Of a DNA stretch of 64,000 bases, positions 28,866-63,606 are shown piece after piece. Position numbers and translations under genes: made by a program. The stretch is from Dehalococcoidia bacterium (GTDB taxonomy: Bacteria; Chloroflexota; Dehalococcoidia; GIF9; AB-539-J10). The stretch spans positions 1,731 to 65,730 of the forward strand of contig JAUWQI010000004.1 of NCBI GenBank assembly GCA_030611085.1. Reading direction: 5' to 3'. The notes under the pieces are model-generated. The model worked only from the letters and a program-made list of their open reading frames with translations, was not told where the DNA came from and ran no database searches. Every line of letters starts with the position of its first letter. Position 1 is the first letter of the stretch.

Positions 28866-30308
28866 ATGGTAGGAATTACTTCTTATGGGGCATATATTCC
28901 CAGGCTGCGAATAAATCGCAAGGTCATTTCCTCAGCTATGGGATGGTTTAACCCTGGAGCGTTACCTGGTGAGAAAGCAACGGTAAATCATGATGAGGAT
29001 AGCCTTACCATGGCGGCAGCTGCAAGCATAGATTGTTTAAATGGGCTCGAACGGGGGAAAGTCGATGGCTTACACTTCGCTACCACTACTTCTTCCTATA
29101 AGGAGAGGCAGGGTGCAGGAATAATTGCTACTGCTCTCGACCTTCATTCTGATATCAGGACTGCTGACTTTACTGACTCCCTTAAGGCAGGAACTACAGC
29201 TCTTCTCTCTGCTTGTGATGCGATTAAGGCCGGGTCAACAAAAAATATGATAGTTTGTACCTCTGATTGCCGAGTGGCGAGGGCTGGCAGCTCTGAAGAA
29301 CAAATCTATGGAGATGGTGCTGCTGCTTTGCTCATCGGAGATACTAATGTAATTGCCACTGTAGAAGGGGCCTATTCTATTTCTTATGATTTTATGGGCC
29401 AATGGAGGACGGACAGTGATAAATTTACTCGAGGCTGGGAGGATAGATGGATTCGAGACGAGGGCTATATCAAAATGCTTCCCGAAGCTATCTCCGGACT
29501 GTTAAAGAAATATAAGCTGAATATTAAGGATTTTGCCAAGATAGTTTACCCTTGCCCCTATCCTAGAGAGCATGCCGCTATAGGGAAAATGCTAGGAGCT
29601 GAACCAGACCAACTTCAAGACACCATGCTTAGTTCAGTTGGCGATACTGGTACAGCTTGTCCATTAATGATGCTTGTAGCAGCACTTGAGGAGGCTAAGC
29701 CAGGTGACAAGATTCTCGTTGCTAGCTTTGGGAATGGGAGTGATGCTTTATTCCTTCAGGTAACTGAGGAAATAGAGAAGCTAGGTGAGAGAAGGGGAAT
29801 TAAAAAGCACCTTGCTCGTAGAAAAGAGCTAGATAGTTATGAAAAATATGTTTCTTTTTCCAATACGCTCGCGATAGAGAAAGGGCGGCGGGGTGAAGAT
29901 GTAGGTCCTACTCAAGTGACAACCCTGTGGAGAGAGCGCAAGTCGATTTTAGCTCTCAAAGGTTGTAAATGTAAACGTTGTGGCACTCCTCAGTATCCCT
30001 ATCAGAGGGTATGCGTGAAGCCTGGTTGTGGAGCTATTGATGAGATGGAAGAGTATAGTTTCTCTGATAAAAGAGGTGTCCTTTTCACTTATACTGGAGA
30101 CAATTTAGCTTTCTCCATGAATCCGCCAGAGATATATGGCATAGTGAATTTTGAGGGGGGTGGCAGGTATTGGTTTAACCTCACGGATTGCGAACTCGAT
30201 TCGCTCAAAGTAGGCACGCATGTGGAGATGAGCTTCCGCAGGAGATATATTCCTGAGGGACGGGGTATTTATGGATACTGCTGGAAAGCTGTCCCAGAAC
30301 TAACATAG
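28866..30308 (+). CDS. HMG-CoA synthase-like domain fused to DUF35 (Zn-ribbon/OB-fold) domain
   Basis: The N-terminus MVGITSYGAYIPRLRI resembles archaeal HMGCS. The C-terminus CKCKRCGTPQYP...VCVKPGCGA plus an OB segment is a DUF35 pattern. Confidence 0.7.
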   Translation: MVGITSYGAYIPRLRINRKVISSAMGWFNPGALPGEKATVNHDEDSLTMAAAASIDCLNGLERGKVDGLHFATTTSSYKERQGAGIIATALDLHSDIRTADFTDSLKAGTTALLSACDAIKAGSTKNMIVCTSDCRVARAGSSEEQIYGDGAAALLIGDTNVIATVEGAYSISYDFMGQWRTDSDKFTRGWEDRWIRDEGYIKMLPEAISGLLKKYKLNIKDFAKIVYPCPYPREHAAIGKMLGAEPDQLQDTMLSSVGDTGTACPLMMLVAALEEAKPGDKILVASFGNGSDALFLQVTEEIEKLGERRGIKKHLARRKELDSYEKYVSFSNTLAIEKGRRGEDVGPTQVTTLWRERKSILALKGCKCKRCGTPQYPYQRVCVKPGCGAIDEMEEYSFSDKRGVLFTYTGDNLAFSMNPPEIYGIVNFEGGGRYWFNLTDCELDSLKVGTHVEMSFRRRYIPEGRGIYGYCWKAVPELT

Positions 30309-30334
30309 TAGTTGGAATTGTAAAGGAGGGAAAG

Positions 30335-31537
30335 ATGCCAGAGGGTATAAAAGACAAGGTAGCAATTATTGGAATGGGATGCACGAAATTTGGAGAACGA
30401 TGGGATACGGGACCTGACGATTTAATTATTGAAGCGTTTACCGAATGTGTTGAGGATGCCGGAATAGAAAAGAAGGACATCGAGGCTGCTTGGTTTGGTA
30501 CCTGCTATGATGAACTTAATGTGGGGAAAAGCGGCATGCCTTTATCATATATACTGAAATTGCCTTTCTTACCCGTAACCAGGGTGGAGAATCTTTGCGC
30601 CACTGCTACGGAGGCTTTGAGGGGTGCTTGCTATGCGGTGGCAAGTGGAGCCTTTGATATAGTATTAGCCTTGGGCATGGATAAACTTAAAGATGCTGGT
30701 TATGGTGGTCTTCCTCATGTTGATATGGCTCTCGGGGGCACCACAAGGGGTATACTTACATGGCCAATCTTTACTGCACCTGGCGCCTTTGCCATGATGG
30801 CCACTAAATACTTTGCTCAATATGGCCTTAGCCCTGAGGAAGGCAAAAGGACATTAGCCAAGATATCATCAAAGAGCCACCATAATGGCACCCTGAGTCC
30901 TAAAGCTCACCTTCGCAGAGAAATATCTGTAGAAGCAATAATGAAGGCTCCCATGATTGCCTGGCCATTGGGCTTATTTGATTGTTGTGGAGTAAGCGAC
31001 GGAGCCTCGGCTGCTATTGTGACTCGAGCGGACATGGCAAAAAATTTCAGGTCTGACCCCGTTTATGTTAAAGCTCTTCAGATTGCTGAAAGCTCGGGAG
31101 AGGAAATGATGTATACTGACTGGGACAGCGCTCATGTGGAGACAACTTATCGTGCTGGTGTCAAAGCCTATCAAGAGGCAGGGGTGAAAAACCCACGGAA
31201 AGAGATAAGCATGATGGAGACCCATGATTGTTTCTCTATTACTGAGCTCACTGAATATGAAGATTTACAAATATCGCCTCGCGGAAGGGCTAAAGAGGAT
31301 GTCGATGCTGGATTTTTCAACCTGGATGGGCAAATTCCCAATGAGTCAGATGGCGGTTTAAAGTGCTTTGGCCATCCCGTTGGTGCCTCTGGGTTGCGGA
31401 TGGTATATGAGATGTATAAGCAACTTCAGGGTAAAGCTGGCCCAAGACAGATAAAGAATCCCAAACTGGGGCTCACCCACAATATGGGAGGTATCCCGCT
31501 TTTGAACATAGTTAGTGTTGCCATTGTGGGTCTTTAA
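30335..31537 (+). CDS. thiolase-fold protein (SCP-x/archaeal acetyl-CoA acetyltransferase type)
   Basis: RVENLCATATEAL (nucleophile Cys), GGLKCFGHPVGASGLRMV and NMGG. Confidence 0.8.
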   Translation: MPEGIKDKVAIIGMGCTKFGERWDTGPDDLIIEAFTECVEDAGIEKKDIEAAWFGTCYDELNVGKSGMPLSYILKLPFLPVTRVENLCATATEALRGACYAVASGAFDIVLALGMDKLKDAGYGGLPHVDMALGGTTRGILTWPIFTAPGAFAMMATKYFAQYGLSPEEGKRTLAKISSKSHHNGTLSPKAHLRREISVEAIMKAPMIAWPLGLFDCCGVSDGASAAIVTRADMAKNFRSDPVYVKALQIAESSGEEMMYTDWDSAHVETTYRAGVKAYQEAGVKNPRKEISMMETHDCFSITELTEYEDLQISPRGRAKEDVDAGFFNLDGQIPNESDGGLKCFGHPVGASGLRMVYEMYKQLQGKAGPRQIKNPKLGLTHNMGGIPLLNIVSVAIVGL

Positions 31538-31582
31538 TTTGCTTTCTCTTCTTATTACTAGAGTTGCTAGATGGCATTCGGC

Positions 31583-31612
31583 TTGCACATTTTTCTCGGA
31601 ATAGGCTATACT
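31583..31612 (+). promoter_or_regulatory. putative promoter of 5S rRNA (TTGCAC-18-TATACT)
   Basis: The hexamers are at 31583-31588 and 31607-31612, about 10 nt before the mature 5S 5' end. Confidence 0.45.
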
Positions 31613-31622
31613 AGCAACAGAG

Positions 31623-31744
31623 CTTCTTGGTGACTTTAGCGGAGTGGACCCACCCGTTCCCATCCCGAACACGGAAGTGAAACTCTCCAGCGCAGACGAT
31701 ACTTAAGGGGCGACTCTCTGGGAAAATATGTCGTTGCCAGGAAG
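31623..31744 (+). rRNA. rrf: 5S ribosomal RNA (stand-alone, no 23S upstream)
   Basis: cccacccgttcccatcccgaacacggaagtgaaac core. The terminal helix cttcttggtgac pairs with gttgccaggaag. Confidence 0.85.
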
Positions 31745-31746
31745 CT

Positions 31747-32943
31747 CTATTTCTCTTCATTCTTTAATTTCGATATGTGAATGGAGTTGGTTACTTCGAG
31801 GCTGCCATACTCCATGACTTTATCAACCAAGTCTTTGCTCCAGAGACTATTTTCGACAATGCGTGTGAGCGATGTTGTATCAAGCTGAGAAACCTCTGCC
31901 CATTTATTTGCCTCTTTAATTGTACTTTCCAGTTCCTGGCGCTCGGCATCATTCTTGCCCGGAAATTTTAGTTTTTCATCAAATCTGACCCTTGCTTTGC
32001 AATCGTTGCCTTTTATGACCTCAACCTCTTCTCGCCTGGCATAATCAAGCATTGCCTCTCTCACCTTTCCCATCTCGTCTTTTATCCTTGCCTCCTCATC
32101 TCTGAGAGCTACATACTTATTAACGAGTGCGACCCCTGGCTCATTGAGATACTCGTTTACCGGTAGAGTTTCTACCTTGACGAAATGCCTTCTCAGCGGG
32201 CAGAGGTCGGGATATTCGCACCAAGCACACAGTCCAGATTCTCTTGGAGGGAAATCCTGAGCCGACTCTATCTCATTAATCAAGCTCTTAGTATCTTGAA
32301 CTAAGTTTGAGATAGCTTCAGGGGTGCGGTAGGAAACCAGTTCCGTGTCGAAGGCAAGATAGTGCCAGATGAGCCTGATACTCTTAATATCTGGCCACTT
32401 CTTCTGGACTCCAATCTGGTATAAAGCAAGCTGCCTATCATTATCCGCTTGTTCTTGGCTGAGCAGATACGCTGAGGTTTTGTAATCATGAATTTCATAA
32501 ACATCATCTTCGGTTCGCGACAGTCGGTCTATATAGCCCGTCATCCTGTACTTATTCTCGTCATCCAAGGAGAAATTAAGCCCCATCTCGGTGCCTATGG
32601 TTATATCTGAGCCAAAGGGCGAATATCGCTTGTAGTAAGTTTCAATCAGCTTTTCGCCCAAAGCCCTGTAGTGCTCCTGCGTTAGCTCTTTCCTTGTGAT
32701 AACAATTGAGTCGTGCCAGTTCTCCCGCCAGATTTTGTTGTAGTAGGTGAGTAAATCGGGCAAGCTATTTACTTTGGTAAGCCTGACGTCGTCATAGCAC
32801 TTCTTCAAGGTCTCATGAACCATCGTGCCCAAGAAGCCCTCAACGCCTTCGATATCCCGCTTAATCCTGTCCCGATAGCGAAGCTTGTACTTCAAGGGAC
32901 ACTCCTTATACATACTTAGCTGCGAATGAGAATAGATCGGCAT
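31747..32943 (-). CDS. Cas4/RecB-like PD-(D/E)XK nuclease with Fe-S Cys pattern and ~130-aa C-terminal extension
   Basis: MPIYSHSQLSMYKECPLKYKLRY, IDRL...EIHDYKT (D..D/ExK) and CAWCEYPDLC. Confidence 0.7.
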   Translation of the reverse strand: MPIYSHSQLSMYKECPLKYKLRYRDRIKRDIEGVEGFLGTMVHETLKKCYDDVRLTKVNSLPDLLTYYNKIWRENWHDSIVITRKELTQEHYRALGEKLIETYYKRYSPFGSDITIGTEMGLNFSLDDENKYRMTGYIDRLSRTEDDVYEIHDYKTSAYLLSQEQADNDRQLALYQIGVQKKWPDIKSIRLIWHYLAFDTELVSYRTPEAISNLVQDTKSLINEIESAQDFPPRESGLCAWCEYPDLCPLRRHFVKVETLPVNEYLNEPGVALVNKYVALRDEEARIKDEMGKVREAMLDYARREEVEVIKGNDCKARVRFDEKLKFPGKNDAERQELESTIKEANKWAEVSQLDTTSLTRIVENSLWSKDLVDKVMEYGSLEVTNSIHISKLKNEEK

Positions 32944-32948
32944 AGTTA

Positions 32949-34127
32949 TTACTCACTATCGGTTTCTGACTCGTACACTTTCCTGAGTATTCCTTCAACG
33001 TCATCACGTGCCAAACCGGCTTTTTGCATATCTCTATAAGCCTGCTCACGACTAGAGCCACTTTGCTTCATGGCCTGCGCAGATTCGTAAGGATTTGTCC
33101 CGATGAATGCTTCAATATCCCGCCACCTAACGGGTTTTGGTCCGTATACTTGATCCAGAACCCTCTCAACGTTCTCCTGGTTTAGGCCAGCCCTCTGCAT
33201 TTTCTCATGAGTTTCTTTTCTAGTCAGATTACACTCCTGAAATCTCTTGGTAGCTCCCCAAGGATTGTTGACTATCTGACTTCTATTCGGAAATCCTTTG
33301 CAATACTCCGGCTTGTCTGTTTTCAGCTTGCACAAGTAACATTTCGGATCATCTCCTGTGCAAATCTCACCTTCATCCTCAGCGCAAAAATGCCAAATGT
33401 AGCTATCAACATACTTGCGTGGTTTCCCCAGAGCTTCTGCTATTGTTATCCCTGTTTTCCTGATATCTTCTGGCTTTCTGCTGGCCCTCACCTGAGCTCT
33501 ATTAAGGTTGATTCTATTGAGAAACGCAATTGTGTGGGTATCGGGTTTGAACTCATCGATACCTATATTGTTGAAAAACTCGCAACAGGTCGCTAGTCCC
33601 ACGCTGCGAAGCTTAAACGGGCTATTAGGGTCGGTGAAACATTTTATCAAAGGGGCGTCCGCAGGCCGGACATAGCACTTGCACAACGGGTCATAAGCTG
33701 CTGCAGGCAGATAGCTCTTGATGAGGGTACAGACAGACCCATGCGTAGACATAATCTGCTGGAACACTCTTGCATTATTGCGAATAGCAAGCAGTTCATC
33801 TTCAAGGAATCTTGCCTTCACCTTACTCTTGTACTGAGCGAATAGCTTTCCAATGTCGCTGTCGGTTAAAGCGGCGACGCTATTCACGTTGTAATTAAAT
33901 AAGCTGACTTTCAGAGCAGGCAAGATCTTTTTCACAGATGCCCAATTTGCCTGCCTTGTCAGAATAGCCCTGCATAATCCCTTAAATATATAGTTATCGT
34001 CTCCACGAAAGTCACTAGGGGATGTTCGAATATTTTTCAATACTTTAGGCTTTTCAACTTGCAATGTATCCCTGATCCTGTCTATTAACATCTCACAATC
34101 TGGTTTGGACAGAATATTAATATTCAT
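32949..34127 (-). CDS. Tag-like (3-methyladenine DNA glycosylase I fold) domain protein with Cys-rich and repeat C-terminus
   Basis: By-eye alignment to E. coli Tag: RQANWA vs QAGLSW, AIRNNARV vs IIGNARA, VGLATCCEF vs VGTTICYSF. Two C-terminal repeats MQ(R/K)AGL..(N/D)VE.(V/I)L. RBS aggagg. Confidence 0.45.
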   Translation of the reverse strand: MNINILSKPDCEMLIDRIRDTLQVEKPKVLKNIRTSPSDFRGDDNYIFKGLCRAILTRQANWASVKKILPALKVSLFNYNVNSVAALTDSDIGKLFAQYKSKVKARFLEDELLAIRNNARVFQQIMSTHGSVCTLIKSYLPAAAYDPLCKCYVRPADAPLIKCFTDPNSPFKLRSVGLATCCEFFNNIGIDEFKPDTHTIAFLNRINLNRAQVRASRKPEDIRKTGITIAEALGKPRKYVDSYIWHFCAEDEGEICTGDDPKCYLCKLKTDKPEYCKGFPNRSQIVNNPWGATKRFQECNLTRKETHEKMQRAGLNQENVERVLDQVYGPKPVRWRDIEAFIGTNPYESAQAMKQSGSSREQAYRDMQKAGLARDDVEGILRKVYESETDSE

Positions 34128-34136
34128 TTCTACCTC

Positions 34137-34457
34137 CTATTTTCTGCTGAATCTTCCAGTTCCATCTACCCTCTCCCTCAAAGCCTTCAGATTCACCACG
34201 TCTTCCTTGTTATATTCTAACAGCAAACTCAAGGCATCTTGGTCCCCATAATTCTGATATTTCCACCACAGCCATATTGCCGCCAGTCCGTCAACGCCCT
34301 GTAGCTGCCTGGAAATTCCCAATTGTTGCTCTACTGCCTTGAAGCCACCATAAAGATTATTCCTCCAGCAGTCATACATCAGGTCATGATGGCAAAACTC
34401 AGACTCAAGGTCTATTCCCAGAGAAGAATCAATGAAGGGAAGGTCGAATCGTTCAGT
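34137..34457 (-). pseudogene. 3' fragment of a second RNase H-like exonuclease gene copy
   Basis: Encodes ..FDLPFIDSSLGIDLESEFCHHDLMYDCWRNNLYGGFKAVEQQLG.., a paralog of the C-terminal ~105 aa of 35590-36081. It has no 5' half. Confidence 0.7.
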
Positions 34458-34636
34458 GTGTTTACCCCAGTAAACCTGAGGTCGTCATAGCACTTCTTCA
34501 AGGTCTCGTGAACCCTCGTGCCCAAGAAGCCCTCAACGCCTTCGATATCCCGCTTAATTCTGTCCCGATAGCGAAGCTTGTACTTCAAGGGACACTCCTT
34601 ATACATACTTAGCTGCGAATGAGAATAGATGGGCAT
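34458..34636 (-). pseudogene. 5' fragment of a second Cas4-like PD-(D/E)XK gene copy
   Basis: MPIYSHSQLSMYKECPLKYKLRYRDRIKRDIEGVEGFLGTRVHETLKKCYDD is nearly identical to the start of 31747-32943. It then runs into the exonuclease fragment out of frame. Confidence 0.75.
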
Positions 34637-34733
34637 CTTAACCTTTGTTAGTCTCCCTTCGGATTGTTTGTTGGCACCCTTGTTCTTTACCCTACTCCCT
34701 TTGCGTGTTTATTCACAGGCAGTTCTCACCGAG

Positions 34734-35555
34734 TTAATCCAAATTGTTTCTTGGTACTAGTCGGATATGCCACTTATCCAGCTCTTCTAAGAACCACTCG
34801 TAAAATGCTGTTGGATTTCCTATATAAGGAAGCCTTACACTCCGTTGTATCCAAGCATCATTTACTTCAGTCCGGTTCCCACCTTTATCTTTTACCCGTA
34901 GTCCTCCCCACCTATCCCGAAGCTTCTCTGTGAGCCTGTATTGCTTCCCCTTCCCACGTCGTTTACCAATGGGTATGCATTTTGTCAATCTTCCAGATTT
35001 CTCATCCTCACGCTTTCCAAAGACTATAATATCTGCGTCGTTATATTGCCCTCTTGTATGTGCATTCCTACCACGTTCCCCTTTGTTTACAAGGTCTTTC
35101 GCGGAAATTGGCTTACCATCTACAATGTAAAGACCGATGATAGCATAGACAAGTCGATCTTCCTCTGGTTCACGCTTAATAGGCTTAAGACCTGCATAAA
35201 AAGCCAATATGTCACCATCATTTAATTCACGAATGGGCTTGCCCCTGTGGTGAGTCTTCTTAGAAGAGAAATCACACCCATCAACATCACCATATGATAA
35301 TTCATAGAAGTCGGGGTCAAGGTGCACGTTCTTGCCCTTTAATTTGTCCGGCGGAAGGCGTTTCTCAAATTCCTCACAATCGCAATACTTATTGAACTCA
35401 TCGTAAGTCGTTCTATGCTCTGGACAAACTTGCCTGCCTTCTGGTATGGGAACGTAAACGAAATCATAAACGGGGTCAGTGGTATTGTTATTTACTGGAG
35501 CATTCCAGCCACCAGATGTTAAATCTATACCTACTCTAACCAGTAATGCGTGCAT
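34734..35555 (-). CDS. hypothetical 273-aa protein (possibly Nmad3-like nucleotide-modification-associated domain)
   Basis: MHALLVRVGIDLTSGGWNAP...VHLDPDF...GDILAFYAGL. It reminds me of the Nmad3 family, but this is from memory only. Strong RBS aaggagg. Confidence 0.4.
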   Translation of the reverse strand: MHALLVRVGIDLTSGGWNAPVNNNTTDPVYDFVYVPIPEGRQVCPEHRTTYDEFNKYCDCEEFEKRLPPDKLKGKNVHLDPDFYELSYGDVDGCDFSSKKTHHRGKPIRELNDGDILAFYAGLKPIKREPEEDRLVYAIIGLYIVDGKPISAKDLVNKGERGRNAHTRGQYNDADIIVFGKREDEKSGRLTKCIPIGKRRGKGKQYRLTEKLRDRWGGLRVKDKGGNRTEVNDAWIQRSVRLPYIGNPTAFYEWFLEELDKWHIRLVPRNNLD

Positions 35556-35589
35556 GTTTTCCTCCTTTCTTTAATATTGGGGTGCTGTT

Positions 35590-36081
35590 TCACTCCAGCC
35601 TCTCCCGCAAAACCTTCAGATTTACCACATCCTCTTCATTATACTTCAGCAGTGTAGTCAACGCATTTTGGTCACCTCCATTCTGGTATTTCCACCACAG
35701 CCATACCGCCCCCAATCCACCGACGCCCTGTAGCTGCCTGGGGATTCCTAGCTGTTGTTCTACTGCCTTGAAGCCGCCAAAAAGGTTATGCCCCCAACAG
35801 TCATACATCAGGTCGTGATGGCGAAATTCAGCCTCAAGGTCTATTCCCAGAGAAGAATCAATGAAAGGAAGGTCAAACCGCTTGCCGTTATAGGTATAGA
35901 TTGCATTTACGCCGTTGAGGGATTCGAGAAGATTCTCTCTGGTCACGGCTTCGCCCACTAATTGAATGAGCTTATCATCTTTGCTATTGCACAGATAAAT
36001 GCCGACTACGGTTATATAATCATAAAACCGAGATAAGCCAGTGGTCTCTATATCAAGGTATGCATCAGTCAATTGCTTCAT
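35590..36081 (-). CDS. RNase H-like (DEDD/YprB-type) 3'-5' exonuclease domain protein
   Basis: MKQLTDAYLDIETTGLS...YTYNGKRFDLPFI...HHDLMYD is the exonuclease motif I-III pattern. Confidence 0.7.
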   Translation of the reverse strand: MKQLTDAYLDIETTGLSRFYDYITVVGIYLCNSKDDKLIQLVGEAVTRENLLESLNGVNAIYTYNGKRFDLPFIDSSLGIDLEAEFRHHDLMYDCWGHNLFGGFKAVEQQLGIPRQLQGVGGLGAVWLWWKYQNGGDQNALTTLLKYNEEDVVNLKVLRERLE

Positions 36082-36117
36082 AGCTCGTGCCTTTAGATTG
36101 AAGTGTAGCACATACCA

Positions 36118-36149
36118 GTGACAGCTAGATTGTCACAAACTGCTATTTT
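36118..36149. promoter_or_regulatory. inverted-repeat operator-like motif GTGACA-N7-TGTCAC plus conserved tail
   Basis: gtgacagctagattgtcacaaactgctatttt lies upstream of the exonuclease operon. It is near-identical to 39047-39078. Confidence 0.55.
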
Positions 36150-36207: not shown

Positions 36208-36432
36208 TTACTCCAGTAGCTTGCGGAACTTCTCACGAGTAAGGGAGGCTTCTCTCAATATTTCTCGCAGTGTTCCCACCTTTATCTCTCGATGTCTGGG
36301 AATGGCCACAGTGTGGTTGGTCTTTGGGTGATAGTAAACCATATGGCTTCCTCTTTGCCTATCGAACACGAATCCTGCACGCTTCAGAGCTGCGGTCACC
36401 TGCTGCCAGGTAAGGCTGGGCAGTCGGCTCAC
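36208..36432 (-). CDS. hicA: HicA-family mRNA interferase toxin
   Basis: 74 aa. LKRAGFVFDRQRGSHMVYYHP...IPRHREIKVGTLREILR. Confidence 0.8.
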   Translation of the reverse strand: MSRLPSLTWQQVTAALKRAGFVFDRQRGSHMVYYHPKTNHTVAIPRHREIKVGTLREILREASLTREKFRKLLE

Positions 36433-36632
36433 ACGACTACCTCACGCTCCTTAATCTGTGGTAATGATAACCCTCGCTCCTTGAGACTCTCTAGATAAAC
36501 CTCTATGGCCTCTCTGATATTAGCCATAGACTCCTCAATGGTTTCCCCTTGGGAGATACAGCCAGGTAAGGAAGGCACATACACAGTATAGCCACCTTCT
36601 TGCTGAGGCTCCACGATTACCCTACATTTCAT
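36429..36632 (-). CDS. hicB: HicB-family antitoxin (short form)
   Basis: MKCRVIVEPQQEGGYTVYVPSLPGCISQGETIEESMANIREAIEVYLE. RBS aaaggagg. 4-nt overlap with hicA. Confidence 0.8.
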   Translation of the reverse strand: MKCRVIVEPQQEGGYTVYVPSLPGCISQGETIEESMANIREAIEVYLESLKERGLSLPQIKEREVVV

Positions 36633-36766
36633 TTTGCCTCCTTTGTTATCAAAAGTATCTCTTATGCCCCATGCTTGGGTTAATTCTAGTATGACCCAGG
36701 CTCGAAAGCAATGCTTCACAGTGTTCATATTATCATTTACATGAGCGGCAGCATCTAGCACAAATG

Positions 36767-37198
36767 CTATTTCCTTTTAGAGACTTCCAGCGACTCTGAT
36801 TGGGCGGTAGCTTCTAATTTATGGTCGGAAGAAGAAAAAGTTATCGTTGAGCCAAGCCTTGTCTTGAGAGTCAATGCTGAGGCAAGGTGGATGGCGTCGA
36901 ACCCCCTGAGGCTGTGTCGTTCAGCAAGCGCGCCAGCAAGCTTCGATACTGGCCATTAGACATCTATGGCAAAGTAGGCACCCCAGTGCTGCTGCAGATT
37001 AGTTATCACGGTGTGATACTGCTCATCGGTAAAATCGCCTTGTCGGTGTTTCCTGGCAAAAGCGGCACAAGCTTCGGCGTATGCCACCTGCGAGGTAGCG
37101 ACAACTCTAGCTCCGTCGAACAAAGCCTTCACTTCGTCGGAGCCATCTTCTCTAACATACAGCTTCACTAAAGAGCTCGTATCTAAATAAAGAATCAT
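36767..37198 (-). pseudogene. vapC: VapC (PIN) toxin interrupted by an in-frame TAA
   Basis: MILYLDTSSLVKLYV...YFAIDV-TAA(36956-36958)-WPVSKLAGALAERHSLRGFDAIHLASAL... all reads in one frame. Confidence 0.7.
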
Positions 37199-37461
37199 CG
37201 CCTGTCTTCAATAACAATCTCGGAAACAGGTTTACCACTAGCTGCTATGGGTTCTGGTGCGATTGGTTTGCCACCTTCCCAAATTGCCAGTCCTTCTTTG
37301 ACCATCTCCGTCAATCGGCTGTAATTGTCAGACTCTTCCACAGGAACAATAAGCGCCACATCGCGGCCGCGATTGGTAACTACAACCTGTTCTCCACTTC
37401 TGACAAGAGAGATATAGTATTTGAGATTATTCTTTAGTTTTCTAATGCCTGCTTTGGCCAT
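37195..37461 (-). CDS. Phd/YefM-family antitoxin
   Basis: 88 aa. KLKNNLKYYISLVRSGEQVVVTNRGRDVALIVP. 4-nt overlap with vapC. Confidence 0.75.
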   Translation of the reverse strand: MAKAGIRKLKNNLKYYISLVRSGEQVVVTNRGRDVALIVPVEESDNYSRLTEMVKEGLAIWEGGKPIAPEPIAASGKPVSEIVIEDRR

Positions 37462-37632
37462 ACCATCACCCCTTTTGTGGCAACATTATAAAGATTTTGT
37501 ATCCACAATGTCAATCTTTAATCGCCCAGTGCAGCCACTCCTATCTGGGAAAGGTGGCATTTTACTTGGTAGTAGGCAAGATAACGAGGCTGTGACAGGT
37601 CATGCTGCTTTGAAAGAGTATGTCGCCATATT

Positions 37633-39009
37633 CTACACTCGTTTGCCACGGCTGTTCACGAATTTGACGAAATCATCTAGTTTTTTCATAGTACAGACGA
37701 TTTTATCCACCAACCCTTCTCCATTAGTATTCCGGACTTCATCAGGTTCGAAACGTCTTGTTATGCCGAAGGTAATATCATCATAGTCAGCGCCATCTCC
37801 CTCAATCGCTTCCCCTATTTCACCGATGTACTTGACCAGGTCTTGCCTTTTCTTGAACTCGCTTAATTTTACTTCCCACTTATCTTCTGGGAGAAAAGAT
37901 TTGTGATTCTCCTCACTTTGATAGTAGTACAAATCAATGAAGAACCCCTTGGGCATTTTAAACAATATACGGGATATCTCGTCTTTATCTGTCTTTATCT
38001 TTCTAAGCAGCTTCTTCCTCAGGGCATCATTTGTGACACGAACCCAAACGGAAAGGCCTTCGCTACCTAATTGAATACACCGGTGCGCCTTGACTTCTTT
38101 AACTTTCTTATCAGAAGTTCCTTTATTGTAAACAGGGAGGAAATAAAAAGTCGCCCAATCATACTTGTTTTTACCTTTTCGAATTCCTTCCGGGGGGCCG
38201 CACTTAAGATAACATTTCTTAGTCCTCTCAGATATATCCTCGGATAGAGCCAGCATCTTCCGTTTCAGTTCTTTCCTTATTTCTTCTTTTTCCTTCGCAT
38301 CTAGCTCTTTTTGCTTCTGCTCGTTAAAAAAATCAAAGTACTTGTTATCATTAAAGCCAGTGAATCCAGCCAGCCCTTCCAAATATAGAAAGTCGCAGAA
38401 TTGCGTTATTAAGAATTCGTTTTTTACATTGAGCAATCGCTTGTTTTCAGGTTCATCCTTTAATTCGCTAAAGAAGGTATATAACTGCTTCCATGAAATG
38501 ACAGCAGGCTTGTGCAGATCTCCCAGTATCCCTTTGTGATTCTTAATCTGATTTTTGTCTAGTCCATCATAGCGCTTACTTTCAATAAGAATTGTCCACT
38601 TTTTCCCAAGCAACCACGCATCAGGGATGCTTGCCTCAGTTTCAGGCCTTGTGTTTTCCGCGTAGATTTGTTCAGTAAAACCGTGGGGGACTATACCCAA
38701 TATTCGCTTAGCTGTCTCTCGGCCAAGATACTTGTCACCGGGATTCCCTTGCTGAAGTAGGAACTTATCCACTTTTGGGGGCACAAGCTTGACTCCTATT
38801 TTCCCGCTCAGCCAGCTAATAAACCGTTTACATATCTCACCATTACCATCGGTAAGTTCTAAGACATTAATAAGAGCCTTGGTTACATTGTTCTCAAGTG
38901 CTTTTGTTTCTTCAGTATCACCGTTCTCCGTATCACCGCCTTTTGTCGGTCCTCTATAATATTCAAATATGTTGTGACCCTTTATGTTGTGACCCTTTTC
39001 ATAATCCAT
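37633..39009 (-). CDS. 458-aa protein with N-terminal PD-(D/E)xK nuclease-like motif, otherwise unknown
   Basis: ..EASIPDAWLLGKKWTILIESKRYD.. (D..ExK). RBS aaaggaggg. It lies downstream of the WYL regulator on the same strand. Confidence 0.55.
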   Translation of the reverse strand: MDYEKGHNIKGHNIFEYYRGPTKGGDTENGDTEETKALENNVTKALINVLELTDGNGEICKRFISWLSGKIGVKLVPPKVDKFLLQQGNPGDKYLGRETAKRILGIVPHGFTEQIYAENTRPETEASIPDAWLLGKKWTILIESKRYDGLDKNQIKNHKGILGDLHKPAVISWKQLYTFFSELKDEPENKRLLNVKNEFLITQFCDFLYLEGLAGFTGFNDNKYFDFFNEQKQKELDAKEKEEIRKELKRKMLALSEDISERTKKCYLKCGPPEGIRKGKNKYDWATFYFLPVYNKGTSDKKVKEVKAHRCIQLGSEGLSVWVRVTNDALRKKLLRKIKTDKDEISRILFKMPKGFFIDLYYYQSEENHKSFLPEDKWEVKLSEFKKRQDLVKYIGEIGEAIEGDGADYDDITFGITRRFEPDEVRNTNGEGLVDKIVCTMKKLDDFVKFVNSRGKRV

Positions 39010-39046: not shown

Positions 39047-39078
39047 GTGACATCTAGATTGTCACAAATTGCTATTTT
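39047..39078. promoter_or_regulatory. inverted-repeat operator-like motif GTGACA-N7-TGTCAC plus conserved tail
   Basis: gtgacatctagattgtcacaaattgctatttt lies between the WYL gene stop and the 458-aa gene start. Confidence 0.55.
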
Positions 39079-40059
39079 TTCTTATAGACATCCAGCATAG
39101 CTTTAGCCGTCTCGATAATATCCTGGCGCAGTTCCTCTGGCTCCAGCACCTCCACCTTCTCTCCCCAGCTCAATATCCAGAAACAGAGTTCGTCTGTAAC
39201 GGTCACCCGCAGTGTCATTATTACCGAGCCATCCTTTTGCCTCTCCACCACCTGTGAGGAATGCCATACTGTCTCCTCCATTATCCTGGCTATTTCAGGG
39301 TCAAACTTCAGCTTAACCGTCTTGGCCTCACCATAAACAGTGATGCCCCAGGAAGAACCCAAAAATTCATTAGCATCAAAACCATGTGGCATAACATAAT
39401 GCTCAAGGGTTGGTTCTATGCTTTCTATGCGCTCTATCTTGAAGGTGCGTATTTCATGGGCACGATGGCAATAGGCAATAACATAGCTTGAGTGCCCTGC
39501 CGCCGCTGGCTCAATAAAATATGGCTCTATTGTGCGTTCAGTTGTCTTCTCTGCCTCCAGTGCCCTATAGATTATTTTAACTCGTTGCTGGGATATCCAC
39601 GCCTCAGCTAGAGTCGCCAGGGTGCGCAAATACCTGTCGTCCTTTGGTTGTTTCTGCATCCACTCCATGGTCTTTTGAATTTGCTCTCTCAACGGAGGTG
39701 AGACTATGGAATTCAACTTCATGAAGGTAGAGGCTACATTGGGGTCATAGCGATGGGTGTAGCTGAGCATCAGCCGGGCAGCGAGAAAAACATTCAAGGC
39801 TTCAGGCAGGGTAAAGTGGATGGGGGGGGAGAAGATAACCTTCTGTGATACCGCGCTTAGTGCTCTCTTCCCAGATGGGCACGCCCAGCTCAGTTTCCAG
39901 GGCAGCCAGGTCACGATATGTAGTTCTTTTGCTGACTTCACACCGGCTAGAGATATCTTCTATCTTCAAACCCCTGGGATTCTGGTAGAGCAGGTGCTCT
40001 ACTTTCAGCAAGCGCGCCGTTCGGTCTGTTTTCCGTCTTTCAGCTTCACTCAATTTCAC
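39072..40059 (-). pseudogene. HTH-WYL-WCX transcriptional regulator split by a frameshift at a C8 tract
   Basis: The HTH ORF (39802-40059) and the WYL ORF (39072-39941) overlap. Removing one C from the C8 run (39822-39829) gives a continuous ..EGYLLPPIHFTLPEALNVFLAARL.. (~328 aa). Confidence 0.75.
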
Positions 40060-40225: not shown

Positions 40226-41602
40226 ATGACCGCGGAAGAACGTTTTCTGGAGGCTATCGACGAGGAAGATAACGAGGAGCTTGAAGCGCCTGCTCCGTAT
40301 GACCGGTTTGCCAGGAGGCATGAAAAGCTCCAATACAAGAACAAGTCTGCTAGCGAGAATTTCTTGGGCAAAGGCAGCCGAGCAAATGCAGTAGCCATAC
40401 TGCCCAGATACTACGGTGAACTGCTGACCTGGGCACTCGATCGCTACATTGAGAAAGAGGGGTGGAAGGTTATTCGAATCCTCGGCTACCGTGGCCGTGA
40501 ACCCATATATATAGATGTGAGCACGGACTGCGATAAGTGTGAGGACCTTTTGATGAATGGCCAATTATTATTAGAGAAGGGTGATAGCCATTTCATAGTT
40601 ACCGTGGACATAAACCTGCAGTGGAGAAATTCAGTCCAGGTAGAAGGTTCTGCCAAAAGGAGAAAGGAAATAGAGAAATTCGCCGACGGCGTCAAGGCTA
40701 TCGCCAAAGAGCAGAACTTCTACCGGGGTAAGAAAATTGAGTTCGGAGGGCGTATTCACTTTCTGAATATCAAAGACAGGTCGTGGGACAGCATTATACT
40801 GGCTCCTGCCATAAAGCGAGAAATCGAGGCTAATACCATTGATTTCTTGAACAGGAGGAAACACTGGGCAGAATATGGGATACCCCAGAAAAGAGGCGTT
40901 CTGCTCGCAGGTGAGCCGGGGACAGGGAAAACAGTAATCTGCAAGGCGCTGATGGCAAATGCCAATGGAGTAACCTGCATCACGACCAATGCCTATGGGT
41001 TGAGCGCTGATGAGTACATCACCGAGCTTTATGAGATGGCTCAAGACCTCAGTCCATGTATCGTTTTCATCGAGGATATAGACCTAATAGGGCTAAACCG
41101 GGAGGAGTATCTCTACCAGCATGGCCCTGCGTTGCTCTCGTTGCTCAACGTACTCGATGGGGTTGAAGAGAAGCAGGAAATCGTAACCGTGGCTACCACC
41201 AATAACCTGCAGACGCTGGATAGGGCCATAAGCCAGCGCCCATCGCGCTTTGACCGCGTCGTAAAGCTCTCTCTCCCACTACTGGAAGAACGGAAAGAAC
41301 TAATCAGCTCATTGTGTCAGAAAATACCCGTAGATGAACCCACCCAGGATTATATTGCCCGTAGGTCAGAACACTGCACCCCAGCTCAGCTACAGGAGGT
41401 TATCTACAGCCTGGTCATAGAGCACTCTGATGAACTATCCGCTGCTCAGTCGCCAAATCTTGAATTTGGCAAAGATGATATTGACCGAGTCATCTCAAGG
41501 ATAAATGGCAGGAATGGGCAGCACATAGGTTTCAATATCTCTGGTAATCACAATGGTGACAAGATGGCCTGTGTGGAAGCTTTGGAGCAAAGCAAGTGTT
41601 GA
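40226..41602 (+). CDS. AAA+ ATPase (classic AAA clade) with ~220-aa uncharacterised N-terminal domain
   Basis: GVLLAGEPGTGKTV (Walker A), CIVFIEDIDLI (Walker B) and ATTNNLQTLDRAISQRPSRFDR (SRH). Confidence 0.8.
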   Translation: MTAEERFLEAIDEEDNEELEAPAPYDRFARRHEKLQYKNKSASENFLGKGSRANAVAILPRYYGELLTWALDRYIEKEGWKVIRILGYRGREPIYIDVSTDCDKCEDLLMNGQLLLEKGDSHFIVTVDINLQWRNSVQVEGSAKRRKEIEKFADGVKAIAKEQNFYRGKKIEFGGRIHFLNIKDRSWDSIILAPAIKREIEANTIDFLNRRKHWAEYGIPQKRGVLLAGEPGTGKTVICKALMANANGVTCITTNAYGLSADEYITELYEMAQDLSPCIVFIEDIDLIGLNREEYLYQHGPALLSLLNVLDGVEEKQEIVTVATTNNLQTLDRAISQRPSRFDRVVKLSLPLLEERKELISSLCQKIPVDEPTQDYIARRSEHCTPAQLQEVIYSLVIEHSDELSAAQSPNLEFGKDDIDRVISRINGRNGQHIGFNISGNHNGDKMACVEALEQSKC

Positions 41603-42102: not shown

Positions 42103-42210
42103 GAATTTTATATCCCCAAGGTGGGAAAAGATTTCTATATGCCTAGGGTGGGTAAAGACTTCTATGTGCCTAAGGTAAGCAAGGATTTCTATGCTCCTAA
42201 AATTAGAAAG
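42103..42210 (+). repeat. four tandem 27-bp repeats (encode [D/E]FYxP[K/R][V/I]xK in one frame)
   Basis: gaattttatatccccaaggtgggaaaa / gatttctatatgcctagggtgggtaaa / gacttctatgtgcctaaggtaagcaag / gatttctatgctcctaaaattagaaag. Confidence 0.8.
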
Positions 42211-42264
42211 GGGGGACTCTTCTAATTTTAGGATGAAAATATTTTGGCTTCATCATCTTCCCCT

Positions 42265-61871: not shown

Positions 61872-61946
61872 TGGCTCCCCGGGCAGGATTCGAACCTGCA
61901 ACCAAGCGGTTAACAGCCGCCTACTCTACCATTGAGCTACCGGGGA
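61872..61946 (-). tRNA. tRNA-Asn (GTT)
   Basis: Hand-folded cloverleaf: TCCCCGG/CCGGGGA acceptor, anticodon loop CTGTTAA, TTCGAAT T-loop, CCA encoded. Confidence 0.85.
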
Positions 61947-61957
61947 ATATCCTTATT

Positions 61958-62031
61958 TGGCTGCCGAGCCTGGATTCGAACCAGGGCTTAAGGATCCAAA
62001 GTCCTCCGTGCTACCACTACACAACTCGGCA
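61958..62031 (-). tRNA. tRNA-Gln (TTG)
   Basis: Hand-folded: TGCCGAG/CTCGGCA acceptor (U1-A72), anticodon loop CTTTGGA, TTCGAAT T-loop, CCA encoded. Confidence 0.85.
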
Positions 62032-62044
62032 CAATCCAATTTCG

Positions 62045-62129
62045 TGCCGAAGGTCGGACTCGAACCGACACGAGAGTCGCCCCCCAACAGTTTTTGAGAC
62101 TGCCGCGTCTACCATTCCGCCACTCCGGC
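62045..62129 (-). tRNA. tRNA-Leu (CAA)
   Basis: Hand-folded: GCCGGAG acceptor, anticodon loop CTCAAAA, long variable arm, TTCGAGT T-loop, no encoded CCA. Confidence 0.8.
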
Positions 62130-62139
62130 ATTTAAAAAG

Positions 62140-62211
<72 letters not shown>

Positions 62212-63464: not shown

Positions 63465-63537
<73 letters not shown>

Positions 63538-63606
63538 CTTTCCATTTTGTCTGTTATCAGACTACAATTGTCAGCAAATATCCTGAAAATTCTGGGGGTA
63601 GCATAA

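Follow-up and report, generated by a model that had tools for sequence, protein, structure and literature searches.

A WYL-linked locus of Dehalococcoidia in which two nuclease genes frame an exchangeable gene for putative DNA base recognition

A 64,000-nt stretch of DNA from a Dehalococcoidia bacterium (GCA_030611085.1, contig JAUWQI010000004.1, positions 1,731-65,730 of the forward strand), hereafter the window, was analyzed around a group of minus-strand genes in which an exonuclease gene (exo) and a gene for a Cas4-like nuclease (Cas4L) enclose a variable gene, here called the slot gene. Genes were called from an open reading frame (ORF) listing and domains were identified with Pfam profiles at their gathering cut-offs. 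The minus strand carries, in this order, an intact exo encoding a 163-aa DEDDy 3'-5' exonuclease (35590..36081; RNase_H_2, E = 3.3e-37); X1, the first slot occupant, encoding a 273-aa Nmad3-family protein (34734..35555; PF18754, 1.5e-21); a pseudogene remnant of about 60 codons from the 5' end of Cas4L (34452..34636; PDDEXK_1, 4.5e-9); the last ~105 codons of a second exo (34137..34451; RNase_H_2, 4.5e-16, profile positions 93-163); X2, the second slot occupant, encoding a 392-aa protein resembling helix-hairpin-helix (HhH) glycosylases (32949..34127; Adenine_glyco, 3.5e-6); and an intact Cas4L encoding a 398-aa PD-(D/E)XK Fe-S nuclease (31747..32943; PDDEXK_1, 1.2e-30). An earlier reading of the sequence alone (the original prediction) had given this gene order for 31747-36149, and the ORF listing and Pfam placed all six elements where it had put them. 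The spacing around X2 is operon-like (5-9 nt). The best explanation of this arrangement is that two units, exo-Nmad3-Cas4L and exo-HhH glycosylase-Cas4L, were merged long ago by illegitimate recombination, leaving a single intact exo and a single intact Cas4L along with two different slot genes, tightly packed on one strand.

The traces of this event were determined by repeat finding and base-by-base comparison. The two Cas4L 5' ends, which had been judged nearly identical over ~180 nt, form a repeat of 190 nt with 92% identity (32754-32943 versus 34447-34636), the first 167 nt of which (32777-32943) are 96.4% identical. The 3' ends of the two exo copies form a repeat of 292 nt with 82% identity (34160-34451 versus 35589-35880); the similarity of the exo C-termini held good, and their identity, put by eye at about three-quarters, was measured to be higher, at 81% in protein. 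The chimeric junction, expected at about 34457/34458, is real and was mapped to 34451-34456, on a CGATT microhomology common to both sequences. At this point the exo-derived frame is offset by 2 nt from the Cas4L ATG, and the ORF running across the join (34412-34636) ends after 74 codons, the first ~58 of which account for the PDDEXK_1 match. The exo 3' stub does not contain the N-terminal D-x-E catalytic motif. The frame shift and the microhomology at the join therefore indicate that both pieces are dead stubs produced by microhomology-mediated illegitimate recombination, which would have deleted the main part of the first Cas4L together with the beginning of the second exo.

Related loci, numbered here with the prefix L, were collected in two surveys, one a genome scan anchored on exo and the other a metagenome scan anchored on the WYL regulator found upstream of exo; 80 loci were read from each, about 160 in all. 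The closest relative, L019, carries exo-Nmad3-Cas4L(codons 1-117), followed after ~600 nt by the same 5S rRNA gene as in the window (31626-31742, plus strand; Rfam, 94.6 bits). This shared flank had been considered ordinary intergenic synteny; it was corrected to the 5S rRNA gene, and its position still signals synteny. A two-module ancestor that underwent different deletions fits both the window and L019; alternatively, a second module may have been inserted into a one-module ancestor. The 5S rRNA gene of the window stands alone, 4 nt from the Cas4L stop codon, with no 16S or 23S rRNA gene in the window, and a 104-aa ORF overlapping it (31358-31672, minus strand) is spurious.

Stubs of both nuclease genes were also found elsewhere. 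Seven loci (L008, L019, L020, L026, L088, L100 and L141) contain Cas4L 5' stubs of 56-99 codons with differing breakpoints; a single precise recombination site was considered for them and rejected, the breakpoints ranging from ~nt 110 to ~nt 350. The exo gene is 5'-truncated, or without its D-x-E motif, in front of the slot gene in L012, L016, L078/L149, L140 and L155/L156, and DUF2779 is the nuclease in every one of them with visible downstream sequence, a group that leaves out L140 and L149. Since DUF2779 is predicted to contain an exonuclease domain of its own (see below), exo decay in these loci fits the loss of a redundant exo. The recurrence of stubs of both nuclease genes points to repeated replacement of the cargo.

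The exo product matched RNase_H_2 (PF13482) with 128.4 bits (cut-off 22) over profile positions 1-164 of 165, and all DEDDy motifs are present and conserved in the alignment: D10/E12 (YLDIETTG), D70 (FDLPF) and Y147..D151 (YNEEDV). Other models were matched weakly, TIGR03491 in the C-terminal part (22.5 bits, cut-off 97) and the PADLOC model for Cas-associated DEDDh proteins with E = 0.003. The genome scan revealed exo relatives in more than 527 species-level genomes, nearly all of them Dehalococcoidia or Chloroflexota, and the exo subfamily is specific to Dehalococcoidia. Both exo copies of the window were closest to the exo of L019, and exo sequences did not group by slot type; slot genes therefore move independently of exo. 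Co-evolution of exo and slot gene as modules was accordingly rejected, the window copies not grouping with other X2-linked exos. In three loci (L090, 492-5477; L153, 6288-9241; L154) exo is followed by AddB/AddA-like proteins of 1000-1100 aa with PDDEXK_1 plus UvrD_C domains, an adjacency that links exo to double-strand-break end processing. A gene of ~430 aa that follows exo in many loci was considered as a divergent nuclease and rejected; it has the sequence of a multi-pass membrane transporter and matched none of the nuclease profiles applied.

The intact Cas4L matched PDDEXK_1 (PF12705) with 107.7 bits (cut-off 22) and missed the cut-offs of both Cas_Cas4 (PF01930; 20.2 bits, cut-off 22.7) and TIGR00372 (28.2 bits, cut-off 65). 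Its ATG at 32943 is backed by homologs starting MPxYSHSQLS. In an alignment of 29 full-length sequences (28 homologs and the window copy) residues C15, C239, C242, C248, D139, D153, K155, Q171 and Y175 were conserved in at least 95% of the sequences, bearing out the Cas4/AddB-type Fe-S pattern that had been recognized in this protein, with its four Cys and the catalytic motifs. The first 50 codons are the most conserved block of the gene, the C-terminal extension is ~140 aa long, and among solved structures AdnAB-type nuclease domains come closest (E = 0.004). To judge from its sequence, Cas4L is a RecB/AddB-type nuclease, Cas4-like and not a Cas4 proper. DUF2779 (PF11074), which stands in for Cas4L in many related loci, is predicted from sequence and the literature to combine a Cas4-like nuclease and a DEDD exonuclease in one fused protein. 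In the window exo and Cas4L are separate genes and not the single polypeptide of DUF2779/TM0106 proteins, so that the locus would work like such a fusion but is not a member of that family.

These two nucleases could also be a relic of CRISPR adaptation or of phage recombination, made up of Cas4 and a DEDDh-type trimming nuclease. Cas4 and DEDDh exonucleases both trim prespacers, exo has the weak PADLOC match mentioned above, and the WYL regulator resembles CRISPR-associated WYL proteins. On the other hand, the window contains no CRISPR array and there is no cas gene among the genes annotated at 30-52 kb, the Cas4 models are not reached, and no relatives were found on viral contigs or in phage genomes. 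We regard such an origin as highly improbable.

X2 reached Adenine_glyco (PF03352) with 27.4 bits (cut-off 25), matching only profile positions 21-117 of 177, and remained below the Tag equivalog TIGR00624 (13.3 bits, cut-off 232.5) and HhH-GPD (PF00730; 14 bits, cut-off 26.2). Its AlphaFold model (pLDDT, the predicted local distance difference test score, 95.1) was compared with the PDB by Foldseek. Tag was the best match (probability 1.00, target TM score 0.63), followed by MutY, EndoIII, MUTYH and ROS1, all fold matches having a probability of 1.00 and a target TM of up to 0.68. Asp196, in the motif FKPDTH, is invariant in the 44 sequences of the family alignment and aligns by eye with VDTH of Escherichia coli Nth. 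An EndoIII-type Cys loop follows, C256-x6-C263-x2-C266-x9-C276 (classic EndoIII/MutY: C-x6-C-x2-C-x5-C), of which C256 and C266 are invariant and C263 and C276 occur in at least 90% of the sequences. Tag uses a zinc site and is not known to have Fe-S-type Cys spacing. The HhH element of X2 has no lysine and the protein is therefore predicted to be monofunctional; from sequence and model together, X2 is a putative monofunctional HhH glycosylase with an Fe-S cluster. The C-terminal part contains helical repeats (41-residue self-alignment, score 76). The Tag-like fold, the Cys-rich segment and the two repeats of the original prediction were thus all recovered, by model, alignment and self-alignment. 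The X2 family is small (53 clusters, mostly Chloroflexi).

X1, likened to Nmad3-type proteins in the original prediction, indeed belongs to this family (PF18754; 77.6 bits, cut-off 27), as do all its listed homologs. Membership of PF18754, a family without known activity, says nothing about the function of X1. The structure model (pLDDT 88.8) had no significant neighbor in either structure library. Its top matches, though weak, are consistently PUA-like modified-base readers (the McrB N-domain with m5C DNA, THYN1 with 5mC DNA, PH1033, VcaM4I, and ASCH, EVE and DUF3850 proteins), and a likeness of X1 to EVE/PUA-like readers is a lead suggested by the model. Ten residues are invariant in Nmad3 (R7, D11, H78, D80, D82, D90, H166, R168, Q237 and R238), a His/Asp/Arg set more suggestive of an active site than of a passive reader. 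X1 and X2 have different folds and are unrelated, as had been supposed, and neither reached a housekeeping equivalog model in the profile searches that the original prediction had called for. Nothing useful came from PDB sequence searches, whether run with the Nmad3 profile or with slot proteins of L020 and L021.

Nmad3 is rare, with 1,196 clusters at E<=1e-3 among 1.84 billion representatives, one match in IMG/VR and a few distant matches on megaplasmids. Invariable flanking of Nmad3 by exo and Cas4L was rejected, as it has other partners in other phyla (L004, L007, L010). Outside Chloroflexi an unannotated domain of ~200 aa ('DPFWEFGSFGCTGCH'; P0065, P0087, P0100, P0116; L007:6735-7361; L099) accompanies it, either fused to it or encoded directly after it. 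The C-terminus of the fusions and the separate neighbor matched with E = 1e-48, and this domain is a second, different obligate partner of Nmad3. Distant homologs adjoin a 7-cyano-7-deazaguanine synthase and a PfkB kinase on the Halorientalis plasmid pHOS300 (L182), and ParDE and a restriction endonuclease on Cupriavidus necator pHG1 (L181). The 'NMAD' domain of the DefensePredictor paper was considered as Nmad3 and rejected; it is Nmad2.

The triplet proposed from the window recurs in other genomes. The recurrent frame consists of an AAA ATPase gene on one strand and, on the other, the HTH-WYL-WCX regulator, an optional gene that often encodes a PD-(D/E)XK nuclease, exo, the slot gene, and Cas4L or DUF2779. 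Loci anchored on exo showed three common states: exo followed by Cas4L (~398 aa), exo alone, and exo separated from the nuclease by one or two inserted genes. Among the WYL loci with at least 3 kb of downstream sequence (n=33), 24 contained exo, 22 a nuclease, 19 both and 12 a recognised slot gene. Both surveys together gave 49 loci with exo and nuclease on one strand, of which about 21 have one or two genes between them, and whenever exo, slot gene and nuclease were all present the slot gene lay between the other two. The combination exo-Nmad3-Cas4L was found in L144 and L145, exo-Nmad3-DUF2779 in L009 and L162, exo-X2-Cas4L in L160 and L118, and exo-X2-DUF2779, with a full exo, in L148. The order exo-X2 is followed by a split DUF2779 in L016-18 (the exo of L016 being without motif I), and X2 further occurs as WYL-[57-aa exo stub]-X2-DUF2779 in L012 and as WYL-X2-polA...fpg in L013-15. 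Tandem slot genes like those of the window are present in L125, L155/L156 and L008, the last with the order exo-Nmad3-[83-aa Cas4L stub]-UDG-like-DUF2779, where UDG denotes uracil-DNA glycosylase.

A Pfam scan of 39 slot proteins identified Nmad3 in seven, Adenine_glyco (the X2 type) in five, OGG in three (best 5.8e-34), and UDG, NERD and PDDEXK_4 in one each, the rest having no match. Of the unmatched types, those of L020, L021/L024 and L026 align pairwise on one HhH-Asp segment (E = 1e-7, 3e-4 and 7e-4), and the L026 protein has sub-threshold matches to OGG and N-glycosylase/DNA lyase. The slot accordingly holds Nmad3, X2-type HhH/Fe-S, OGG-like, three further HhH-motif and UDG-like proteins as well as unknowns, at least eight families in the roughly 21 of 49 loci that carry slot genes, in agreement with the exchangeable middle gene of the original prediction. 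By these matches the slot appears to be dominated by base-recognising proteins of two glycosylase superfamilies and by Nmad3.

Upstream of exo the window contains the regulator (39072..40059, minus strand; Pfam matches to HTH_11, a helix-turn-helix domain, WYL and WCX), which matched the PADLOC models WYL (1e-40) and the WYL part of 'Cas3c' (1.8e-66). It lies directly upstream of exo or of cargo in L008, L012, L013, L020, L026 and most of L100-L179. The window copy is frameshifted. Compared with the ENA assembly of the same contig, which is 99.98% identical over 21.4 kb, it has an extra G at 39822 (a G8 to G9 run) that splits HTH from WYL-WCX; the intact allele has the three-domain architecture. 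A second difference, G-to-T at 36957, introduces a stop at codon 81 of a PIN (VapC) toxin gene that encodes 143 aa in the other assembly. Of the five single-base differences within the 21.4 kb, three, including these two disruptive ones, are clustered in 3 kb between WYL and the toxin-antitoxin genes. Both may be real variants or assembly errors. Slipped-strand (phase-type) variation of the regulator could account for the extra G if it is not an assembly error, and if the frameshift is real the WYL regulator is inactive in this genome. The AAA ATPase gene (458 aa; 40226..41602, plus strand; Pfam AAA) is transcribed divergently from the regulator, adjoins it in most related loci and forms the conserved left border of the island. 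Its product matched PADLOC IetA (1.4e-21) and also NCBIfam FtsH/PAN-type AAA models.

Between the regulator and exo lies variable cargo, all on the minus strand: a gene for a 458-aa protein (w458; 37633..39009), and genes for a Phd/YefM antitoxin (37195-37461), the PIN toxin (36767-37198), a HicB antitoxin (36429-36761) and a HicA toxin (36208-36432), the first pair identified by Pfam and the second by ORF listing and domain annotation. No Pfam or PADLOC profile matched w458, whose homologs in L129 and L169 are found at the equivalent position. Its motif 'IPDAWLLGKKWTILIESK' resembles PD-(D/E)XK, its G+C content (0.41) is the lowest of the island, and it showed a weak collinear match (E = 0.02-0.2) to PDDEXK_4-type genes in the same gap elsewhere. 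This similarity was too weak for membership of PDDEXK_4, and a PD-(D/E)XK nuclease remains a possible lead for w458. In other loci this gap holds PDDEXK_4 and NucS_C/YhcG-like nucleases and a DUF6884 protein. A reverse transcriptase follows WYL in L105, a type I restriction-modification (R-M) methylase follows WYL and an Nmad3 gene in L102, and GmrSD and FRG genes follow the triplet in L009. The region of 31.7-41.6 kb is best explained as a variable island found across Dehalococcoidia. A perfect 12/12 match to a sigma-70-type promoter (TTGACA-18-TATAAT; 37485-37514, minus strand) lies just upstream of the phd gene and is the only strong promoter-like site of the island; promoter and terminator scans yielded no more sites than in shuffled sequence.

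From the domains, folds, conserved residues, junction and recurrence described above we infer how the locus may be regulated, which substrates it may have, how its proteins may cooperate and that it may act in defence; the anti-phage role raised in the original prediction is likewise inferred. We give an even chance to a reading as WYL-linked 'base-excision restriction' in which a plug-in gene would set the specificity, the exo-nuclease gap being a landing slot for genes that would recognise or excise DNA bases. The WYL regulator would sense single-stranded DNA (ssDNA) or damage, as CapW and BrxR do, and so control expression; regulators of HTH-WYL-WCX architecture adjoin diverse defence systems (PMC9122601) and sense ssDNA (PMC11662680). 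The slot protein would flip out and remove (X2), or bind and possibly remove (Nmad3), a non-canonical base, typically one used by phages. The abasic sites or nicks would then be widened from both ends by exo (3'-5') and Cas4L (5'-3') until the marked DNA was destroyed, and a swap of the slot gene would change the targeted base. The two toxin-antitoxin pairs and the IetA-like AAA ATPase give the window a defence-type context, and the reverse transcriptase, R-M methylase, GmrSD and FRG genes do so for related loci. Precedents exist in the anti-phage glycosylases Brig1, Brig2 (UDG) and Dag (HhH), which show a like pattern of polyphyly and exchange. For Nmad3 in particular, the idea that it is a base-flipping enzyme or sensor on a PUA/EVE-like fold, forming with exo and Cas4L a modular base-excision restriction system reprogrammed by one gene, is tentative and we consider it doubtful.

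Several results weigh against base-excision restriction. The nuclease chassis of the original prediction stood, its fixity did not: about half of the loci with exo and nuclease have nothing in the slot, Cas4L swaps with DUF2779, and slot genes occur under the same regulator without exo or nuclease (L166, L178, L013, L102). In the WYL loci exo was present in 10 of the 12 with a slot gene and in 14 of the 21 without one, which is not significantly different. The G+C content of the locus shows no deviation, and no integrase or transposase was seen. X1, X2 and the OGG-like, UDG-like, L020, L021 and L046 types had no match in PADLOC-DB v2, X1 and X2 had no relatives in 50,697 phage genomes, and Cas4L had none on viral contigs; a phage or plasmid origin was considered and rejected. 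The fold matches of X1 are weak (E = 0.02 or worse). Finally, no AP (apurinic/apyrimidinic) endonuclease or lyase is encoded in the locus and X2 has no lyase lysine; nicks would therefore need a host enzyme or spontaneous cleavage.

The distribution of exo and of the X2 homologs also counts against defence, and with it bears on a different explanation, specialised damage-inducible repair, in which WYL would act like PafBC/DriD, the slot glycosylases would remove host lesions and exo with Cas4L/DUF2779 would process long-patch excision. The exo gene behaves like a vertically inherited core gene, often standing alone in conserved housekeeping surroundings across its more than 527 species-level genomes; exo-Cas4L pairs lie beside genes that by sequence resemble DNA polymerase III delta' and others (L027, L055, L096), and exo precedes the AddB/AddA-like giants of L090, L153 and L154. 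X2 homologs adjoin polA and fpg in L013-15, and in L004 an Nmad3 gene lies two genes downstream of fpg, with polA ~2 kb further upstream. The uncharacterised DUF2779 protein is quasi-essential in JCVI-syn3.0, a minimal Mycoplasma cell, and has an exo domain similar to the repair nuclease MrfB; the solo-Cas4 of Chloroflexi evolves vertically like ordinary genes (PMC5704561), and nothing links the locus to mobile elements or phages. For a housekeeping pathway, however, one would not expect the glycosylase to vary across at least eight unrelated families in close relatives, or the slot to be empty in half of the loci. Moreover, many copies are decayed, known defence cargo occupies the same WYL-adjacent position, and the slot proteins fall below all curated repair-enzyme cut-offs. 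Repair is in our opinion rather unlikely.

The independent movement of slot genes and exo, together with the occurrence of slot genes without nucleases and of nucleases without slot genes, would also be compatible with a recombination hotspot, in which exo and Cas4L have a role of their own and the gap between them is an easy landing site, reached by homologous recombination, for independent defence or repair genes. Brig1/2 and Dag function as single genes, the most conserved block of Cas4L is that formed by its 5' 50 codons, and the WYL-exo gap likewise gathers cargo of unrelated kinds, for instance toxin-antitoxin pairs and PD-(D/E)XK nucleases. The exo-nuclease gap is, however, strongly biased to base-recognising proteins, at least 16 of the 39 matching glycosylase or Nmad3 Pfam models directly and the majority of the others carrying an HhH motif, whereas the WYL-exo gap gathers other kinds of gene. 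The operon-like spacing around X2 is a further point against a mere landing site. In addition, exo tends to decay where DUF2779 adds a second exo domain, implying that the nucleases are under selection as one unit. We judge a simple hotspot to be unlikely.

The island is bordered by housekeeping genes. On the right-hand side (28866-31537, plus strand) these encode a thiolase and a 480-aa protein with a C-terminal OB_ChsH2_C domain, presumably HMG-CoA-synthase-like by its sequence; on the opposite side, past the AAA gene, are those for CinA and PheRS. The gap separating cinA from the AAA ATPase region contains, at 42105-42211, a degenerate 27-nt tandem repeat of ~3-4 copies with 76-79% matches, which is not a CRISPR array. 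Farther away are a tRNA cluster (Asn, Gln, Leu and Phe; 61872-62211, minus strand) and a tRNA-Lys gene (63465-63538, plus strand).

If the tentative reading of Nmad3 given above is true, no glycosylase defence system of several components would have preceded this one, and the Nmad3 family would gain a function. Glycosylases have only recently been recognised as antiviral effectors, so far as single genes, and a conserved pair of nucleases around an exchangeable slot would illustrate how abasic sites can lead to the destruction of DNA. The locus is a natural catalogue of at least eight putative base-recognition modules, several of them unannotated, which are candidates for modified-base-specific enzymes, and it provides a testable context for three orphan families (Nmad3, DUF2779 and the Chloroflexi solo-Cas4). 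It is also a clean example of cassette-like turnover via recombination between conserved flanking genes in uncultivated Dehalococcoidia. If instead the repair reading is true, an unusual excision pathway would exist in a lineage with reduced genomes. In the literature searched, which did not extend to subscription journals, the split exo/Cas4-like frame, its exchangeable slot, Nmad3 in a glycosylase position and the stub record are undescribed, and searches on Nmad3 and on Dehalococcoidia with WYL and glycosylase returned nothing relevant.

Among known systems, the two catalytic modules of exo and Cas4L are those of DUF2779 (PF11074) and TM0106/COG2251 (TIGR03491) (PMC3985635; PMC13621843). 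In those proteins they are fused, whereas in the window they are separate, with exo first (the reverse order), a cargo slot between them and a C-terminal extension of its own on Cas4L. Like Cas4L, the solo-Cas4 of Chloroflexi is a stand-alone Cas4/RecB nuclease with four Fe-S cysteines and no CRISPR link; in many Chloroflexi it forms a monophyletic group with largely vertical inheritance (Hudaiberdiev et al. 2017, PMC5704561). That work centres on PF01930/COG1468 and treats PF12705 briefly, and its main text does not describe an exo partner, a slot or a WYL frame. BrxR/CapW, and also PafBC and DriD, have the three domains of the regulator and lie directly upstream of variable defence or damage-response cargo (PMC9122601, PMC11662680). 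The likeness is one of architecture and position; here the regulator is paired with a divergently transcribed AAA ATPase gene, and the window copy is frameshifted.

With Tag, EndoIII/Nth and MutY, X2 shares the HhH fold, the 'xDTH' Asp motif and the Cys-x6-Cys-x2-Cys loop, but it is far below the Tag cut-off, has no Nth lysine, and adds C-terminal repeats and the Fe-S-type Cys spacing. Base-excision restriction enzymes of the R.PabI family, and type IV enzymes whose readers are of EVE/PUA type (McrB-N of T. gammatolerans, VcaM4I), share the concept that a flipped base identifies foreign DNA, which is then destroyed by way of an abasic site or by an attached nuclease (PMC10273834). R.PabI has a different fold (HALFPIPE). 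Readers of the type IV kind gave the best, non-significant fold matches of the Nmad3 model; type IV enzymes fuse reader and nuclease, which are separate genes in the window.

The nearest parallel to the slot is offered by Brig1 and Brig2 (UDG fold) and the HhH glycosylases Dag1, Dag2 and relatives, which defend against modified-base phages, diverge from the housekeeping families, are polyphyletic, with some near Tag/AGOG, are exchanged between strains and excise modified phage bases (PMC11078745; bioRxiv 10.1101/2025.10.29.685425). The slot of the loci described here holds the same two superfamilies. Its context is variable and has defence-type neighbours (toxin-antitoxin, GmrSD, reverse transcriptase, R-M and WYL), without integrases or G+C deviation. 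Brig and Dag are single genes, often integron cassettes in Proteobacteria, whereas here, in Dehalococcoidia, the putative glycosylase lies between exo and Cas4L downstream of WYL, and one slot family, Nmad3, is not a known glycosylase. The locus is composed of components of known kinds, namely putative defence-type glycosylases, a nuclease of the solo-Cas4 kind, the modules of DUF2779/TM0106 fusions and a WYL regulator.

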